Of a stretch of DNA of 24,000 nucleotides, positions 1,982 to 23,862 are shown one piece after another (the first letter of the stretch is position 1; each line of letters starts with the position of its first letter). The stretch covers positions 5,886 through 29,885 of the forward strand of contig JAAYBB010000011.1 in the NCBI GenBank assembly GCA_012719075.1. Reading direction: 5' to 3'. The notes beneath the pieces are model-generated. The model did no database searches. It was not told the DNA's origin and saw only the letters and a program-made list of their open reading frames with translations. Position numbers and translations under genes: made by a program. This stretch comes from Clostridiales bacterium. GTDB taxonomy: Bacteria > Bacillota > Clostridia > Oscillospirales > Feifaniaceae.

Positions 1982-2010
1982 TTTACAAGGGCGGGCGGGT
2001 CTGATATACT
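1982..2010 (+). promoter_or_regulatory. Sigma-A-type promoter for the first amidohydrolase leader
   Basis: TTTACA (1982-1987), 17-nt spacer, extended -10 TGaTATACT (2002-2010). Confidence 0.55.
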
Positions 2011-2326: not shown

Positions 2327-3934
2327 ATGGACAGGGTCCTATACAACGGCAAGATTTACGTGGAGCGCGACCGCTTTGCGCAGGCGCTGTGGATGCAGGA
2401 CGGCGTGATCCGCGCCGTCGGCAGCGACGACAGCGTGCTCGGCGAAGCGCCCGAGGGCAGCGAGCGCATCGACCTGGGGGGCGCCACCGTCATCCCCGGA
2501 TTCAACGACAGCCACCTGCACATGCGCATGCTGGGCGAAAACCTCAAGCTGGTGCAGCTGCACAACGCGGCCTCGCTGCAGGAGGTCATCGACCGGGGCC
2601 GGCAGTTCATCGAAAAAAACGCCCCGCTGCCCGGCACCCTGGTCGCCGGCTTCGGCTGGAACCAGGACTACTTCACCGATGCGCGGCGCATGCCGAACCG
2701 GCATGACCTCGACCAGGTCTCGACCGAGCACCCGGTCTACTTCGCGCGGGCCTGCGGCCACGCCGTCTCGGTCAACACGCTGGCGCTGCAGATGGCCGGC
2801 ATCACGTCGGGCACCCCCCAGCCCGAGGGCGGCCAGTTTGAGCTGGGCGAGGACGGGCAGCCAAACGGCATCTTCCACGAGTGCGCCAGCCGCATGTTTG
2901 CCGACATCACGCCCAAGGTCACGGCCGAGACCATCGCCGACGACATTGCCACCGCCATGGCCTATGCCGCCTCGCTGGGCATCACCTGCGTGCAGAGCAA
3001 CGACTACAACGAGGAAAACCGCCACGAGATGGACGCGGCCCTTGCGCTGCTGCGCGAACGCGGCGGCCTGCTGACCCGCTACTACGCGCAGAACGCCTTT
3101 ACCAACCCCGGGACGCTGGCGGCCCTCTTTGAGGAGGGCTATGCCACCGGGCGGGGGGACGACCTGGTGCGCATGGGGCCGCTCAAGCTGTTTGTGGACG
3201 GCTCGCTCGGCGCCCGCACCGCGCTGCTGCGCGGCCGCTATGCCGACAACGACAAGGCGCAGGGCATCCAGACGCTGTCCGACGAGGTCTTTGACGAGTT
3301 GGTGCGCATCGCCGACGAGGCCGGCGTCTCGGTGGTGACCCACGCCATCGGCGACGGCGCCATCGACAAGGTGCTGTGCAGCTACGAGAAGGTCATCAAG
3401 GGCGGCGACAACAAAAACCGCCATGGCGTGGTGCACGTGCAGATCACCGACAAGCCGATGCTGCAGCGCTTTGTGGATTCGGGCGTGCTGGCGCTGATCC
3501 AGCCCATCTTCCTGCACTACGACATGTACATCGTCGGCGACCGCGTCGGCCCCGAGCTGGAAGAGACCTCCTACGCCTTCGGCAGCATGGTGCGCATGGG
3601 CATCCGCGCCTCCTACGGCACCGACTGTCCGGTCGAAGACCTCAACCCCTTTGAAAACGTCTACACCGCCGTGGCCCGCAGGGACCTCAAGTGCCGGCCC
3701 GAGGGCGGCTACTTCCCCGCCGAGGCCGTGGACGTGCAGACCGCCATCGACTGCTACACGGCCGAGAGCGCCTATTCCTGCTTTGCCGAGGACCGCCTCG
3801 GCCGCCTGCAGCCCGGCTATCTGGCCGACCTCGTGGTGCTGGACGCCGACATCTTCACGGTGCCGCACGAGGACATCCTCAAAATCCGCCCGGTGACCAC
3901 CTACCTGGCCGGCCGGCCGGTCTACCGGCGCTGA
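2327..3934 (+). CDS. Metal-dependent amidohydrolase, Amidohydro_3/YtcJ-like (COG1574-type), paralog 1
   Basis: ATG 2327 is preceded by GGGAGGAG (2312-2319). The track start at 2189 lies inside the upstream leader/terminator. Motifs: IPGFNDSHLHM (HxH metal site), VDGSLGARTA, VTHAIGDGA, HGVVHVQ, SYGTDCPVE. Confidence 0.85.
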   Translation: MDRVLYNGKIYVERDRFAQALWMQDGVIRAVGSDDSVLGEAPEGSERIDLGGATVIPGFNDSHLHMRMLGENLKLVQLHNAASLQEVIDRGRQFIEKNAPLPGTLVAGFGWNQDYFTDARRMPNRHDLDQVSTEHPVYFARACGHAVSVNTLALQMAGITSGTPQPEGGQFELGEDGQPNGIFHECASRMFADITPKVTAETIADDIATAMAYAASLGITCVQSNDYNEENRHEMDAALALLRERGGLLTRYYAQNAFTNPGTLAALFEEGYATGRGDDLVRMGPLKLFVDGSLGARTALLRGRYADNDKAQGIQTLSDEVFDELVRIADEAGVSVVTHAIGDGAIDKVLCSYEKVIKGGDNKNRHGVVHVQITDKPMLQRFVDSGVLALIQPIFLHYDMYIVGDRVGPELEETSYAFGSMVRMGIRASYGTDCPVEDLNPFENVYTAVARRDLKCRPEGGYFPAEAVDVQTAIDCYTAESAYSCFAEDRLGRLQPGYLADLVVLDADIFTVPHEDILKIRPVTTYLAGRPVYRR

Positions 3935-3965: not shown

Positions 3966-3995
3966 TTGACAAAGCGGCCGGCCCCGTGCTATAGT
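3966..3995 (+). promoter_or_regulatory. Sigma-A-type promoter for the second amidohydrolase leader
   Basis: TTGACA (3966-3971), 18-nt spacer, extended -10 TGcTATAGT (3987-3995). Confidence 0.6.
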
Positions 3996-4001
3996 ACGTT
4001 C

Positions 4002-4306
4002 CAAAGCAGAATACCACAAAGGCGATGAAGAGGGCCGTTGGTACACCAGCACCTGCCACAGAGAGTCTCGGGAGCTGAAAAGAGACGCATGTGCCGTATC
4101 GCGTAAAGACTTGGAGCCGCGCACCGACCGCACGCCGTCAACGCGTGCCGAGACTGCGATGGGAGCGCCCATTACAGCGCCAGGGTATCGGCGGCATCCG
4201 CCCGTACCTGTAGAGGTCCGCGCCGCGAGGCGTGGATGAACCAAGGTGGTAACACGAAAGCAGTCCGCTCTCGTCCTTGTCGATGTACAGGGGCGAGAGT
4301 TTTTTT
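4002..4306 (+). promoter_or_regulatory. T-box riboswitch (transcription attenuation type), probable Lys specifier
   Basis: Stem I has a K-turn base (GGC-GAU-GA 4021-4028 with GA-GCC 4114-4118), AG bulge AGAGAG 4060-4065, and an apical hairpin UCUC/GAGA with the loop GGGAGCUGAAAA. Stem III lies at 4217-4236. In the T-box, CAAGG (4242-4246) pairs with CCUUG (4275-4279). This flanks the 7-nt bulge UGGUAAC (4247-4253) and helix ACGA..UCGU. The antiterminator 3' strand overlaps the terminator 5' arm CUCUCGUCC (4268-4276). That arm pairs with GGGCGAGAG (4291-4299), followed by T7 (4300-4306). Confidence 0.85.
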
Positions 4307-4536
4307 ATGCAAAAACGCAAAGGACAATCAGGCCGCGCCGGCAGTCCGGCGCCGTGGGTGAGGAGGGGACTTTGGGAGTGGGCGATCGAAGAGACGGCGC
4401 AGGCCGCCGCACCGAGATGTGCAGAGTTCCCGGCAATAAACGGGCGCTCCGCGGGCAGCGGGCACCGCACACCCCGGACCGGCGGCACCGGCCGCCGCGG
4501 CCGGCATCACTTTGAAAAACGAGGGGAATGGACACC

Positions 4537-6171
4537 ATGAATCGAGTACTCTATAACGGCAACATCTATGTGGAGCGCGACAACTTTGCACAGGCCCTGT
4601 GGATCGAGGGGGACACCATCCGCGCCGTCGGCAGCAACGAGGCCGTGCTGGCCGCCGCGCCGGCCGGCAGCGAGCGCGTCGACCTGAACGGCGCCACCGT
4701 CGTGCCCGGCTTCAACGACAGCCACCTGCACATGCGCTCGCTGGGCATGAGCCTCCGGGTGGTGCAGCTGCAAAACAGCACCTCGATGCAGGAGATCCTC
4801 GAGCGGGGTCGGCGCTTCGTCGCCGAGCAGATGGTCCCGGCCGGCGCGCTGGTCATGGGCCGCGGCTGGAACCACGACTACTTCACCGACGAGCGGCGCA
4901 TGCCGAACCGGCACGACCTCGACCAGGTCTCGACTGTGCACCCGGTCTACTACATCCGCACCTGCGGCCACGCCATCTCGGTCAACACGCTGGCGCTGCA
5001 GATGGCCGGCATCACGTCGGGCACCCCCCAGCCCGAGGGCGGCCAGTTTGAGCTGGGCGAGGACGGGCAGCCCAACGGCATCTTCCACGAGTGCGGCAAC
5101 CGCATGTTTGCGTCGCTGCTGCCCCAGCCCTCGACCGAGACCTTCACCAACGAGCTGCGCGCCGCCATGGCCTACGCCGCCTCGATGGGGGTCACCTGCG
5201 TGCAGAGCAACGACTGCAACGAGGACAACTACCCCGAGATGCTGCGGGCGCTCTCCAACCTCCGCGAGAGCGGCGAACTGCTGGCCCGCTACTATGCGCA
5301 GTCGGGCTTCACCAAGGTGGAAAACCTGCGCCGCTTCCTCGACCAGGGCTACGCCACCGGCCACGGCGACGACCTGGTGCGCATGGGGCCCACCAAGCTG
5401 CTGGTGGACGGCTCGCTCGGCGCCCGCACCGCGCTGCTGCGCGGCCGCTATGCCGACAACGCCGAGGCCCAGGGCATCCAGACGCTGACCAACGAGGTCT
5501 TTGACGAGCTGGTGCGCATGTCCGACGAGGCCGGCTCCACCGTGGTGACCCACGCCATCGGCGACGGCGCCATTGAGATGGTGCTGAACAGCTACGACAA
5601 GGTCATCCAAAACGGCAACAACCGCAACCGCCACGGCGTGGTGCACGTGCAGATCACCGACCGGCCGCTGCTGCAGCGCTTTGTGGACTCGGACGTGCTG
5701 GCGCTGATCCAGCCCATCTTCCTGCACTACGACATGCACATCGTCGGCGACCGCGTCGGCCCCGAGCTGGCCGCCACCTCCTACGCCTTCGGCAGCATGG
5801 TGCGCATGGGCATCCACGCTTCCTACGGCACCGACTGCCCGGTCGAAGACCTCAACCCCTATGAGAACATCTACACCGCCGTGGCCCGCAGGGACCTCAA
5901 GTGCCGGCCAGAGGGCGGCTACTTCCCCGCCGAGGCCGTGGACGTGCAGACCGCCATCGACTGCTACACGGCCGAGAGCGCCTACGCCTGCTTTGCCGAG
6001 GACCGGATGGGCCGCCTGCAGCCCGGCTACCTGGCCGACCTCGTGGTGCTGGACGCCAACATCTTCACGGTGCCGCACGAGGACATCCGGAACATCCGCC
6101 CGCTGGCCACCTATGTGGGCGGCCGCCCGGTCTACCAGGCCGACCGCGCCCGCGTCCCCGCAAACGTGTAG
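4537..6171 (+). CDS. Metal-dependent amidohydrolase, Amidohydro_3/YtcJ-like, paralog 2
   Basis: MNRVLYNGNIY aligns with the MDRVLYNGKIY start of paralog 1. GAGGGG (4521-4526) is about 10 nt upstream of ATG 4537; the in-frame ATG 4528 sits too close to it. Same HxH and downstream motifs as paralog 1, plus a short C-terminal extension (…QADRARVPANV). Confidence 0.85.
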   Translation: MNRVLYNGNIYVERDNFAQALWIEGDTIRAVGSNEAVLAAAPAGSERVDLNGATVVPGFNDSHLHMRSLGMSLRVVQLQNSTSMQEILERGRRFVAEQMVPAGALVMGRGWNHDYFTDERRMPNRHDLDQVSTVHPVYYIRTCGHAISVNTLALQMAGITSGTPQPEGGQFELGEDGQPNGIFHECGNRMFASLLPQPSTETFTNELRAAMAYAASMGVTCVQSNDCNEDNYPEMLRALSNLRESGELLARYYAQSGFTKVENLRRFLDQGYATGHGDDLVRMGPTKLLVDGSLGARTALLRGRYADNAEAQGIQTLTNEVFDELVRMSDEAGSTVVTHAIGDGAIEMVLNSYDKVIQNGNNRNRHGVVHVQITDRPLLQRFVDSDVLALIQPIFLHYDMHIVGDRVGPELAATSYAFGSMVRMGIHASYGTDCPVEDLNPYENIYTAVARRDLKCRPEGGYFPAEAVDVQTAIDCYTAESAYACFAEDRMGRLQPGYLADLVVLDANIFTVPHEDIRNIRPLATYVGGRPVYQADRARVPANV

Positions 6172-6646: not shown

Positions 6647-8713
6647 ATGAAGCAATACCCCATGGACAAGGTGCGAAACGTCGTCTTACTCGGGCAGGGG
6701 CGCTCGGGGAAGACATCCTTTGTGGAGGCCGCCCTGTATCTGAACAAGGGGACCGACCGCTTTGGCAAGGTGAATGACGGCACGACGGTCAGCGACTACG
6801 ACCCGGAGGAAATCAGGCGCCAGATCTCCATCTCGCTGACCGTGGCGCCGGTGGAATATCAGGGCTGCAAGCTCAACCTGATCGACACCCCCGGCTACCT
6901 CGACTTTGTCGGCGAGGTCATGCAGGGTGTGCGCGTGGCGGAGACCGCGCTGATCGTGGTCTCGGGCAAGGACGGCCCCGGCGTGGGCACCGAAAAGGGC
7001 TTTGCCTACGCCACGGCGGGCGGGCTGTCCAAGCTGTTCTTCGTCGGCCGCATGGACGAGGAGCACGTGGACTACTTCAAGGTGGTCGAGCAGCTGCGCG
7101 AGACCTTTGGCATCTCGGTCTGCCCGATCAACTGCCCGATCATGGAGGGCGATCGCATGGTCGGCCTGGTCGACTTTGTCGAGCGCAACGTCAAGACCTT
7201 TAAAAACGGCGTGGCCGAGGTCAGGGAGCTGCCCGAGGACATCGGGCCGCAGGCCTCCCACCTGTGGGACATGCTCAGCGAGTCGGTGGCCGAAACCTCC
7301 GAGGAGCTGATGGAGAAGTACTTCGGCGGGGAGTACTTCACGCGGGACGAGACGGTGCAGGCCCTCAAGGCCGGCATTGCCGAAGGCACCATCGCGCCGG
7401 TCATGTGCGGCTCGGCCATCTCGCTCGAGGGGGTCAACCTGGTGGTCGACATGCTGGCCAAGGCCACCCCCTCGCCGGCCGACCGCGGCGAGACCCAGGC
7501 CACCGTCGACGGCAAGGAGGCCGCGCTCAAGGCCGACCCGGCCGGCGACCTGGCCGCCATCGTCTTCAAGACCGTGGCCGACCCCTTCGTGGGCAAGATG
7601 TCCTTCTTCAAGGTGGTCTCGGGCACCATGAAGGCCGACAGCCAGGTCACCAACAGCACCAACGGGCAGAATGAAAAGATCGGCAAGCTGTTCTTCATCC
7701 GCGGCAACAAGCAGCAGGAGACCGCCGCGGTGGGGGCCGGCGACATCGGCTTTGTCAGCAAGCTGGGCGCCACTGTGACCGGCGACACCCTCTGCGCGGC
7801 CGGCAAGAAGATCGTGCTGCCCGGCATCACCTTCCCGCGCCCGGCCTATGCCATGAGCATCTCGCCGCTGGCCAAGGGGGATGAGGAGAAGATCTCGACC
7901 GGCCTGCAGCGCCTGGCCGAGGAGGACCGCACCTTCACCTATGCGCTCAACCCCGAGACCAAGCAGCAGGTCGTCTCCGGCCTGGGCGACGTGCACCTCG
8001 ACGTGCTGGTCAGCAAGCTCAAGAACAAGTTCGGCACCGGCGTCGAGCTGGGGCCGATCAAGGTGCCCTACCGCGAGACCATCCGCAAGAAGGTCAAGGT
8101 GCAGGGCCGCCACAAGAAGCAGTCGGGCGGCCACGGCCAGTTTGGCGACGTCTGGGTCGAGTTCGAGCCCGGCGACACCGAAGACCTGATCTTCGAGGAG
8201 CACGTCTTTGGCGGCTCGGTGCCCAAGAACTTCTTCCCGGCCGTCGAAAAGGGCCTGCGCGAGTCCATCCAGAAGGGCGTTTTGGCCGGCTATCCGGTGG
8301 TCAACCTCAAGGCCACGCTGGTGGACGGCTCCTACCACCCGGTCGACTCCTCCGAAATGGCCTTTAAGGTGGCCGCCAACCTGGCCTACAAGGCCGGCAT
8401 GACGCAGGCCAGCCCCGTGCTGCTCGAGCCCATCGGCAGCCTCAAGGTCCGGATTCCCGACAGCATGATGGGCGACATTATCGGCGACATCAACAAGCGC
8501 CGCGGCCGCATTCTGGGCATGAACCCGGTGGCCGGCGGCCTGCAGGAGGTGGACGCCGAGGTGCCGATGGCCGAGATGAACGGCTACGCCGTCGACCTGC
8601 GCTCCATGACCCAGGGCCGGGGCGACTTTGAGCTGGAGCTCGCCCGCTACGAGGAGGCGCCGGCCAATGTGGCCCAGAAGGTCATCCAGGAGGCCGCCGC
8701 CGGCGAGGAGTGA
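6647..8713 (+). CDS. Elongation factor G paralog (EFG-II-like translational GTPase)
   Basis: AGGAGGG RBS at 6634-6640. 688 aa with a GTPase domain (GQGRSGKT, DTPGY, GRMD) and EF-G domains II-V (e.g. HLDVLVSKLKNKFG, GGHGQFGDVW, VDGSYHPVDSSEMAFK, LLEPI). The DxPGY form is as recalled for Thermus EF-G-2. Confidence 0.9.
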   Translation: MKQYPMDKVRNVVLLGQGRSGKTSFVEAALYLNKGTDRFGKVNDGTTVSDYDPEEIRRQISISLTVAPVEYQGCKLNLIDTPGYLDFVGEVMQGVRVAETALIVVSGKDGPGVGTEKGFAYATAGGLSKLFFVGRMDEEHVDYFKVVEQLRETFGISVCPINCPIMEGDRMVGLVDFVERNVKTFKNGVAEVRELPEDIGPQASHLWDMLSESVAETSEELMEKYFGGEYFTRDETVQALKAGIAEGTIAPVMCGSAISLEGVNLVVDMLAKATPSPADRGETQATVDGKEAALKADPAGDLAAIVFKTVADPFVGKMSFFKVVSGTMKADSQVTNSTNGQNEKIGKLFFIRGNKQQETAAVGAGDIGFVSKLGATVTGDTLCAAGKKIVLPGITFPRPAYAMSISPLAKGDEEKISTGLQRLAEEDRTFTYALNPETKQQVVSGLGDVHLDVLVSKLKNKFGTGVELGPIKVPYRETIRKKVKVQGRHKKQSGGHGQFGDVWVEFEPGDTEDLIFEEHVFGGSVPKNFFPAVEKGLRESIQKGVLAGYPVVNLKATLVDGSYHPVDSSEMAFKVAANLAYKAGMTQASPVLLEPIGSLKVRIPDSMMGDIIGDINKRRGRILGMNPVAGGLQEVDAEVPMAEMNGYAVDLRSMTQGRGDFELELARYEEAPANVAQKVIQEAAAGEE

Positions 8714-23632: not shown

Positions 23633-23862
23633 GCTCTCACCTCCTGCGAGTGGAATGGTCATCGGGGGTTTTCCATCAGCGGGGGCGGAGAAATAAAAAG
23701 CCCCTTTGCATGCCGCAAAGGAGCGAGAAAACCGACGGGCAGCCAAACCCGGGAGTCGGGCGGCAGGGCGGTTTCGCATCCCCCTCGGCAGGCCTATTTC
23801 AGCGATAACGCACCTGCTGTCTTCGGTTGATGACCTATGAAATTGTAGGCGATTTTGAACGC
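23633..23862 (-). promoter_or_regulatory. rplJ leader with attenuator hairpin (ribosomal protein L10 leader-type)
   Basis: ~230-nt 5' UTR between the promoter and rplJ. On the minus strand it contains the hairpin CCTTTGC-GGCAT-GCAAAGG (plus coordinates 23703-23721). GGCTTTTTATTT follows it (minus strand), which is the attenuator layout known for Firmicute L10 leaders. The conserved L10-binding core was not verified. Confidence 0.5.

Follow-up and report, generated by a model that had tools for sequence, protein, structure and literature searches.

The window analysed here, a 24,000-nucleotide stretch of DNA from a Clostridiales bacterium (GenBank assembly GCA_012719075.1, contig JAAYBB010000011.1, positions 5,886 to 29,885, forward strand), carries two tandem genes for YtcJ-like amidohydrolases, hereafter termed A and B. 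Gene A is preceded by a lysine riboswitch, and gene B by a T-box leader, without a lysine riboswitch (L-box) of its own. The analysis presented below indicates that this leader is very likely a transcription-terminating T-box responsive to tRNA-Lys(UUU), which would induce a lysine-supplying hydrolase when the charging of tRNA-Lys falls. The two units comprise the following features:

1982-2010, + strand: promoter-like site of the gene A unit
2021-2193, + strand: lysine riboswitch before gene A (RF00168, 64.7 bits; gathering score 30)
about 2226-2256, + strand: terminator of the gene A riboswitch
2327-3934, + strand: amidohydrolase A, tandem paralogue just upstream of B
3966-3995, + strand: sigma-70-type promoter-like site, TTGACA-18-TATAGT, 11/12 matches, with TG ahead of the -10 hexamer
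4016-4306, + strand: T-box leader of the transcription-terminating type, about 290 structured nucleotides
4307-4536, + strand: GC-rich spacer between terminator and start codon, about 228-230 nucleotides
4537-6171, + strand: amidohydrolase B, the regulated gene, YtcJ-like, 544 amino acids, Pfam Amidohydro_3 with an expectation value (E) of 2.6e-101

The start codon of gene B, ATG 4537, was chosen by alignment of the paralogues (MNRVLYNG versus MDRVLYNG), and GAGGGG at 4521-4526, 11 nucleotides 5' of this codon, is the likely ribosome-binding site. Shuffles of the promoter region contained 0.4 comparable promoter-like sites on average, and we infer that transcription of the T-box leader starts near position 4002. 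The leader is built from these elements:

4021-4118, + strand: Stem I, with kink-turn (K-turn), helices, specifier loop, AG bulge and distal loop
4021-4029 and 4113-4118, + strand: K-turn (GA motif), GGC-GAUGA-A opposite G-GA-GCC
4030-32/4110-12, + strand: Stem I helix of 3 base pairs
4040-4044 with 4096-4100, + strand: Stem I helix GGUAC/GUAUC, which U4039-G4101 can lengthen
4049-52/4091-94 and 4054-56/4087-89, + strand: further helices of Stem I
4057-4064, + strand: AG bulge, CACAGAGA
4065-69/4082-86, + strand: distal helix, which covaries (CG/UA about 24/20)
4070-4081, + strand: distal loop, GGGAGCUGAAAA
4105-4107, + strand: specifier codon AAA, followed 3' by the purine G4108
4119-4181, + strand: highly conserved region of Stem II and Stem IIA/B
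4120-23/4155-58 and 4130-35/4143-48, + strand: Stem II, with covarying pairs (GC/AU, UA/CG)
4160-62/4169-71, + strand: Stem IIA hairpin, loop GAGCGC
4217-24/4229-36 (region 4215-4237), + strand: Stem III, 8 base pairs with a GCGA tetraloop
4242-4279, + strand: antiterminator (T-box sequence), helices A1 and A2 around a 7-nucleotide bulge
4242-46/4275-79, + strand: antiterminator helix A1, CAAGG/CCUUG, covarying
4247-4253, + strand: antiterminator bulge UGGUAAC, in which UGGU is the predicted partner of the tRNA 3' ACCA
4254-57/4271-74, + strand: antiterminator helix A2, ACGA/UCGU, covarying
4267-80/4287-4300, + strand: intrinsic terminator, 14 pairs, loop CGAUGU, run of seven U at 4300-4306

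An earlier note, made from the letters of this DNA, had placed a T-box in 3966-4536, and all parts that it named were found in order, at or near the positions that it had given. Its account has to be amended by Stem II and Stem IIA/B (4119-4181), which are present and had gone unmentioned. The 5' arm of the terminator includes the antiterminator's 3' strand (4271-4279) in full, and the two folds are consequently mutually exclusive. The folding energy amounts to -22.9 kcal/mol for the terminator (z-score -5.15) versus -10.7 kcal/mol for the antiterminator alone, in keeping with the usual default-off arrangement.

The Rfam T-box model RF00230 aligns over all of its 219 positions (window 4016-4281) with 49.1 bits, corresponding to E-values of 1.1e-9 in a search of 701 nucleotides and 3.7e-8 across the whole window. 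The closest relative of the leader lies on the related metagenomic locus L081 (ENA ERZ27245258, contig k141_1500013), which harbors the same T-box (44.8 bits on RF00230) with 84% identity over about 320 nucleotides. The 20-mer GATGGGAGCGCCCATTACAG from Stem IIA/B, identical in the window and L081, was scanned against metagenomes and occurs exactly in 61 contigs, mostly from gut samples. All 61 contigs match the leader profile in an nhmmer search, with E-values from 8e-11 to 4e-44. The eight top-ranking relatives of the leader have AAA without exception. Six of them stand before lysS, and it is the lysS leaders that match the leader in the window best by nhmmer. These six loci (L087, L103, L110, L118, L127 and L138), all from gut metagenomes, carry T-box-controlled genes for class II lysyl-tRNA synthetases. 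In addition, L103 contains a second T-box (2798-3048, - strand, 111.7 bits) with GGC (Gly) in the specifier columns, and in L087 a tRNA gene (3300-3372, - strand) is located just upstream of the lysS T-box.

An alignment of 46 sequences, comprising the window, L081 and 44 distinct relatives, was used to score covariation. In the helices of the leader 84% of the cells are paired versus 75% in shuffles, none of 500 shuffles reached the covariation score, and 37 of the 54 leader pairs show changes on both sides. When the partner columns were slid by one to three positions, pairing fell to 35-48%. The K-turn stem, the helix of 3 base pairs, the top helix and the distal helix are 90-100% paired in the 44 relatives and show changes on both sides; Stem III has such changes in all 8 pairs, with 94% of the cells paired. 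For the terminator, 88.5% of the cells are paired in the relatives, and here as well 0/500 shuffles reached the covariation score. The K-turn is 100% identical to that of L081, its columns being invariant or nearly so over the 46 leaders, and the AGAGA of the AG bulge and the G..UG..A of the distal loop are invariant within this T-box lineage. The candidate IIA/B pseudoknot between the GAGCGC loop and GCGC at 4178-81 is likewise invariant, so that covariation is uninformative on it either way. Within Stem I, only the leader in the window has the two middle helices.

The comparison with L081 alone is informative as well. From the window to L081, the antiterminator helices change from ACGA/UCGU to ACGG/CCGU and from CAAGG/CCUUG to UGAGG/CCUCG, the terminator changes from CUCUCG/CGAGAG to CUCCCG/UGGGAG with pairing kept, and the top of Stem I from UGC/GCA to CGC/GCG, again with pairing kept. 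Leaving aside the candidate IIA/B pseudoknot, every T-box family feature tested is present, except for the S-turn of the specifier loop and a score above the gathering score of Rfam, both of which are taken up below. The notion that the leader resembles a T-box by chance within a GC-rich intergenic region, to which that score and a whole-leader fold z-score of just -1.72 might lend themselves, is effectively refuted by the window-wide E-value of 3.7e-8, by nhmmer matches down to 4e-44 against 61 T-boxes before aminoacyl-tRNA synthetase and transporter genes, and by modules that all stand in order with support from covariation.

The identity of the specifier follows from the covariance alignment, in which AAA occupies the codon columns of the leader in the window and G the purine column. 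In the codon columns the six lysS leaders have AAA, those of asnS have AAC and those of metS/metN have AUG; for the window, L081, lysS (L103) and metS (L105), the Rfam model sets the codon in the very same place. The 3' sides of the specifier loops read:

lysS (six leaders): GAA-N-AAA-G-(A/C)CUU
asnS: GAA-U-AAC-G-CCUU
metS/metN: GAA-N-AUG-G-NCUY
window: GCG-U-AAA-G-ACUU
L081: UCC-C-AAA-G-CCUC

The proteins encoded downstream of the calibrating leaders were checked with NCBIfam. Two lysS representatives scored 565 and 570 bits (cut-off 468), the asnS product scored 595 bits (cut-off 414), and the metG product is a fragment with an E-value of 2e-97; the MetN-like ABC ATPase genes scored 361.5 bits, under the model cut-off of 499.7. 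Because the codon columns are calibrated by the lysS, asnS and metS/metN leaders, the specifier is AAA followed by G4108. The earlier note had proposed a lysine specifier, read either as AAG-A or as AAA-G. The assignment to lysine holds, and it is the AAA-G register that the synthetase leaders select; AAG-A is excluded, as with the register moved by one base asnS would read ACG and metS would read UGG. A4109, next to the purine, is mismatched opposite G4033. AAAG is identical in the window and L081, while the adjoining 5' stretch (4090-4104) is only 35% identical; the specifier is thus an island under selection within a fast-evolving stretch.

The acceptor-pairing bulge reads UGGU in the window as well as in the lysS and Met leaders, and UGGC in the asnS leaders. 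The discriminator base is as a rule A73 in tRNA-Lys and tRNA-Met and G73 in tRNA-Asn, and the distribution of UGGU (Lys/Met) versus UGGC (Asn) fits this difference. The lysS and asnS leaders of the lineage are near-identical save for AAA versus AAC and UGGU versus UGGC. Elsewhere among the relatives, T-boxes with the specifier AUG (Met) precede genes for NSS-family sodium symporters or a GNAT-like acetyltransferase (L083, L086, L099, L114, L119, L140 and others; L090, L100).

The enzyme family is tied to lysine by a second and independent line of evidence. We examined 80 homologous loci from species-representative genomes for lysine riboswitches. Rfam detected the riboswitch in 9 of 16 scanned genome loci, and an nhmmer profile in 34 of the 80, on the strand of the gene and typically 1.5-1.9 kb upstream (among them L001, L004-L006, L009, L011-L014, L016-L018 and L022). 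It is additionally present in L081, L082, L145, L146 and L147. In all, at least 37 related loci carry it; the RF00168 scores in 11 related loci range from 64.6 to 103.7 bits. In L082, L145, L146 and L147 the riboswitch is located directly upstream of the gene and there is no T-box, and the upstream sequence of L144 is too short to judge its leader. In L005 (Intestinimonas butyriciproducens), the sole locus checked in this respect, a gene for an APC-family amino-acid permease lies between the riboswitch and the amidohydrolase gene. The riboswitch loci carry the record labels Oscillospiraceae, Erysipelotrichaceae, Clostridium, Fusobacteriaceae and Sutterella. Hence, the amidohydrolase clade belongs to the lysine riboswitch regulon as a conserved member found across a broad range of taxa, and the T-box is a local addition. 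In line with this, neither a regular-expression search upstream of the 80 genome homologues nor an nhmmer search with a profile of the window and L081 yielded a further T-box on the amidohydrolase family; its occurrence there is confined to the genome of the window and L081, and in the 400-nucleotide spacer of L082 an unfiltered search likewise gave no trace of a T-box. The lysine riboswitch before paralogue A, the strongest independent clue to lysine, had been left out of the earlier note's finding. Together with the riboswitches of the at least 37 related loci, it lends independent support to the note's proposal that the enzyme supplies an amino acid. Two side observations concern these loci: L008 contains a second lysine riboswitch after the gene (5726-5899), and the TrkA-TrkH neighbours of the window are also kept in L146.

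L081 combines both leaders. Its arrangement is as follows:

303-331: promoter-like site, same hexamers as window 1982-2010
339-513: lysine riboswitch, with its terminator at 546-575
599-871: T-box, with its terminator at 857-892
from 975: amidohydrolase gene

No promoter-like site was found between the L081 riboswitch and the T-box. Two complete lysine sensors, each with its own terminator, stand in series before one gene in L081, and in the window the sensors are split between the paralogues. The proteins A and B are 76% identical (85% at the DNA level). Amidohydrolase B is a singleton in a collection of 5.8 billion proteins, and its nearest relative beyond the window, 71% identical, is encoded on L081. 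The rate of synonymous substitution (dS) is 0.22 between A and B and 0.61-0.64 between either of them and the L081 gene; since the former lies below the latter, the duplication, or the last gene conversion, post-dates the split from L081. By inference, the simplest history would start from an ancestor with a tandem leader, followed by a tandem duplication after which A kept the riboswitch and B kept the T-box plus a promoter. The reverse, in which a deletion of gene A fused both leaders in L081, is possible. The ratio of non-synonymous to synonymous substitution (dN/dS) is 0.72 between A and B, versus 0.35-0.39 to L081, which points to selection having become relaxed or diversifying once the gene was duplicated. 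Along the two proteins, long near-identical blocks (residues 121-180 and 420-520) are interspersed with diverged ones, a pattern for which divergence in substrate or gene conversion in patches could account.

With respect to the enzyme itself, searches of amidohydrolase families returned only general matches (Amidohydro_3) and no NCBIfam equivalog. The intact open reading frame and the aligned metal ligands suggest that B looks like an active enzyme. Its sequence aligns with that of SgELA at 27% identity over 531 amino acids (E-value 2e-38), with the metal ligands HxH, H, H and D in register. SmELA and SgELA (EC 3.5.1.17) are YtcJ-like enzymes that release L-lysine from N-epsilon-acyl-lysines (PMC10699109), and other members of the same family perform unrelated chemistry, as exemplified by metal-dependent bile salt hydrolases (PMC13081902). 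The apparent kinship with epsilon-lysine acylases is accordingly a lead for candidate substrates, not an assignment.

Based on these data, we propose the following mechanism. Transcription would start from the promoter at 3966-3995, perhaps supplemented by read-through from gene A. Between the stop codon of gene A (3934) and this promoter we found no terminator-like site, and read-through transcripts from the riboswitch-controlled gene A would thus meet the T-box as well. By default, the strong terminator at 4267-4306 would form and the transcript would stop ahead of gene B. Upon a shortage of charged tRNA-Lys, the anticodon of the uncharged tRNA would pair with AAA at 4105-4107 and its elbow would stack on the platform formed by the AG bulge and the distal loop. 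The free 3' ACCA end would then pair with UGGU and thereby stabilise the weaker antiterminator (4242-4279), allowing the polymerase to enter gene B. Sensing would thus be split, with free lysine being read by the riboswitch on copy A and the charging of tRNA-Lys by the T-box on copy B. Since the enzyme clade is otherwise under the control of lysine riboswitches, probably often alongside an amino-acid permease, the enzyme would most likely act to liberate lysine, at times of scarcity, from a conjugate taken up into the cell, for instance an N-acyl-lysine. More tentatively, we consider it possible that Clostridia and certain other bacteria of the gut have a lysine-salvage module not recognised so far, consisting of an APC permease and a YtcJ-like amidohydrolase acting on an imported conjugate such as an N-epsilon- or N-alpha-acyl-lysine, a lysine lactam or an isopeptide. 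This module would have been wired in one lineage to both lysine sensors known in bacteria, as a two-input gate in L081 (low lysine plus uncharged tRNA-Lys) and split between paralogues in the window, with the T-box working in the absence of an S-turn.

Several observations weigh against the proposal of a functional lysine T-box on a lysine-supplying enzyme. First, the RF00230 score of 49.1 bits lies below the gathering score of 93; the covariance search to which the earlier note had pointed as a check is thus borne out in significance and in full-length alignment, but not in curated score. In a default Rfam scan of the window the T-box is not listed and appears only when an E-value threshold is applied, the scan listing the lysine riboswitch (2021-2193) and a ribosomal protein L10 leader only. 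Within the lineage the window scores second lowest, with only L081 below it (44.8 bits) and the other leaders at 60.8-101.5 bits. Several genuine synthetase leaders fail the curated cut-off, too, along with one before an NSS transporter: the lysS, asnS and NSS-transporter leaders of the lineage score 69.2, 65, 60.8 and 85.6 bits; lysS (L103) and metS (L105) pass at 101 bits.

Second, the S-turn of the specifier loop (AGUA on the 5' side, GAA on the 3' side), kept in 44 of 44 relatives, is absent from the window, which has GUUG (4037-4040) and GCG (4101-4103), and from L081, which has GGAA and UCC. The earlier note's statement that all canonical parts are readable therefore holds for the parts that it named but not for this motif. 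S-turn mutations are known to impair antitermination of tyrS. In both leaders the replacements can extend the adjacent helix, leaving a small internal loop whose 3' side reads N-AAA-G-N, and the two lowest Rfam scores in the lineage are probably due in part to the missing S-turn.

Third, a spacer of about 228-230 nucleotides, an oddity of the leader in the window, separates the terminator from the start codon. The distance from the run of U to the start is about 70 nucleotides in L081, far shorter than in the window, and the spacer at 4307-4536 matched neither Rfam nor any of the fetched loci, its fold z-score being -0.28. Two candidates for its content were rejected: a 77-codon open reading frame from 4308 has no ribosome-binding site, starts within the terminator tail and is set in GC-rich DNA, in which frames of this kind turn up frequently, and a degenerate L-box remnant before gene B was not supported, as blastn against L-box leaders gave no match. 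Fourth, no tRNA gene was found in the window and no tRNA-Lys gene in 36 related loci (ARAGORN), nor is a permease gene evident beside the two amidohydrolase genes among the main open reading frames of the window. Finally, on the side of the enzyme, the solved structures that come closest, 3ICJ and 3IGH, belong to uncharacterised proteins, the identity to any characterised lysine-releasing hydrolase is only 27%, and the dN/dS of 0.72 may mean that one copy is under relaxed constraint.

Some of these points could be accommodated by a lysine T-box that has been crippled by the loss of the S-turn, would no longer bind tRNA productively and would attenuate transcription constitutively, leaving gene B with leaky expression at most or on its way to a pseudogene. 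Apart from the missing S-turn, the bottom Rfam ranks shared with L081, the dN/dS between A and B and the long spacer, the middle of Stem I, which is just 35-46% identical between the window and L081, would suit this view. We nevertheless consider it unlikely. Between the window and L081, conservation of the remaining functional modules amounts to 77-100%, and both antiterminator helices as well as the terminator are kept by compensatory changes. AAAG stands out with 100% identity in its fast-evolving surroundings, and the window and L081 each form their own helices around the specifier loop. Gene B retains an intact frame of 544 codons with aligned catalytic residues and is less diverged from the L081 orthologue than gene A (non-synonymous rate, dN, 0.21 versus 0.25). 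Moreover, a terminator of -22.9 kcal/mol would silence gene B if antitermination were lost.

A functional T-box of other or mixed specificity is a good deal less probable still. The sequence GUAAAGA in the loop permits further triplets, such as a shifted GUA (Val) or AGA (Arg), and the geometry of a loop lacking the S-turn is uncertain. Promiscuous recognition of tRNA-Asn has a precedent in the B. cereus lysK T-box, which is partly induced by uncharged tRNA-Asn (PMC2916919), and the lysS and asnS leaders of the lineage are very similar. Against this, the register is set by three independent synthetase calibrations, L081 reads CCCAAAGC and shares only AAA/AAG with the window, the UGGU of the bulge mismatches the UGGC of the Asn leaders, and the lysine riboswitches in at least 37 loci tie the gene family to lysine.

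The T-box responsive to tRNA-Lys can be compared with several known systems. Lys T-boxes have been described for lysK of B. cereus and lysS of C. beijerinckii and S. thermophilum (PMC2916919). In a survey of 891 genomes, T-boxes of lysyl-tRNA synthetase genes occurred in four species only (PMC2916919), and besides lysK/lysS, a permease is known to be under a Lys T-box (PMC2916919, PMC2494555). The leader in the window resembles those of lysS in the terminator/antiterminator pair, AAA followed by G, UGGU, the K-turn, the AG bulge and distal loop, Stem II, Stem IIA/B and Stem III, and it shares the antiterminator sequence UGGUAACACGAAGC...CUCUCGUCCUUG with the lysS leader of L103. It differs from them in its target, a hydrolase rather than an aminoacyl-tRNA synthetase, in the lost S-turn and smaller specifier loop, and in its Rfam score (49 bits versus 65-101 bits for lysS leaders). 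As a Lys T-box it is rare, and its target is of a kind new to such leaders; in the searchable literature we found no T-box with a Lys specifier before a YtcJ-like amidohydrolase.

A lysine-sensing leader that switches an uptake-plus-hydrolase module is also found in C. difficile, where an L-box controls the transporter gene yfcC together with an M20D amidohydrolase gene (PMC11477304). In contrast to that regulon, gene B would be switched by tRNA charging, and its product is a TIM-barrel Amidohydro_3 enzyme, not an M20D peptidase. The aminoacylase gene amhX (COG1473) is controlled by T-boxes and S-boxes (PMC12452182), and other T-box targets beyond the synthetases, transporters among them, are known (PMC12452182, PMC2494555). 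Like the gene described here, amhX represents a T-box on an amino-acid-releasing hydrolase and provides a precedent for the prediction of a substrate from the specifier; it differs in responding to Met instead of Lys and in belonging to a different enzyme superfamily. SmELA and SgELA share the fold family, full-length homology and aligned metal ligands with amidohydrolase B (PMC10699109). They are actinomycete enzymes for which no link to a riboswitch is reported, and 27% identity is too distant for a transfer of the substrate.

The arrangement in L081, with two sensors in series before one gene, is reminiscent of logic gates composed of tandem heterologous riboswitches, such as the pair for S-adenosylmethionine and adenosylcobalamin on metE. 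Tandem riboswitches have been reviewed (PMC9481103). Unlike in that pair, both sensors of L081 report on lysine, one at the level of the free pool and the other at that of tRNA charging, whereas in the window they are divided between paralogues rather than placed in tandem. In the literature, with some comparative papers outside the search, we found neither an L-box/T-box tandem nor this amidohydrolase family under either lysine sensor.

Two further features lie elsewhere in the window. Directly after gene B, a stand-alone gene on the + strand (6647-8713) encodes an EF-G-like GTPase of 688 amino acids with all five domains of elongation factor G (EF-G), outside the usual context of a str operon; its product may be an EF-G paralogue or a protein of the ribosomal-protection type. 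At the end of the window, the ribosomal protein L10 leader (RF00557, 61.7 bits) is located at 23685-23844 on the - strand.

Taken together, the main value of these results lies in a function prediction for the enzyme clade and in the dual-sensor arrangement, rather than in the switch alone. The T-box specifier and the lysine riboswitches represent two independent RNA-sensor labels for lysine supply on an uncharacterised enzyme clade that is widespread in the gut, and in place of a bare amidohydrolase label they provide a hypothesis that can be tested, including a partner permease and candidate substrates. By the same logic, the AUG-specifier T-boxes of the lineage predict methionine-related roles for the NSS symporter and GNAT-like genes. 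The leaders lacking the S-turn constitute natural material to gauge how necessary this motif is when Stem II and Stem IIA/B are present. Likewise, sensing in series in L081 and split sensing in the window offer a route to study combined or divided read-outs of one amino acid.

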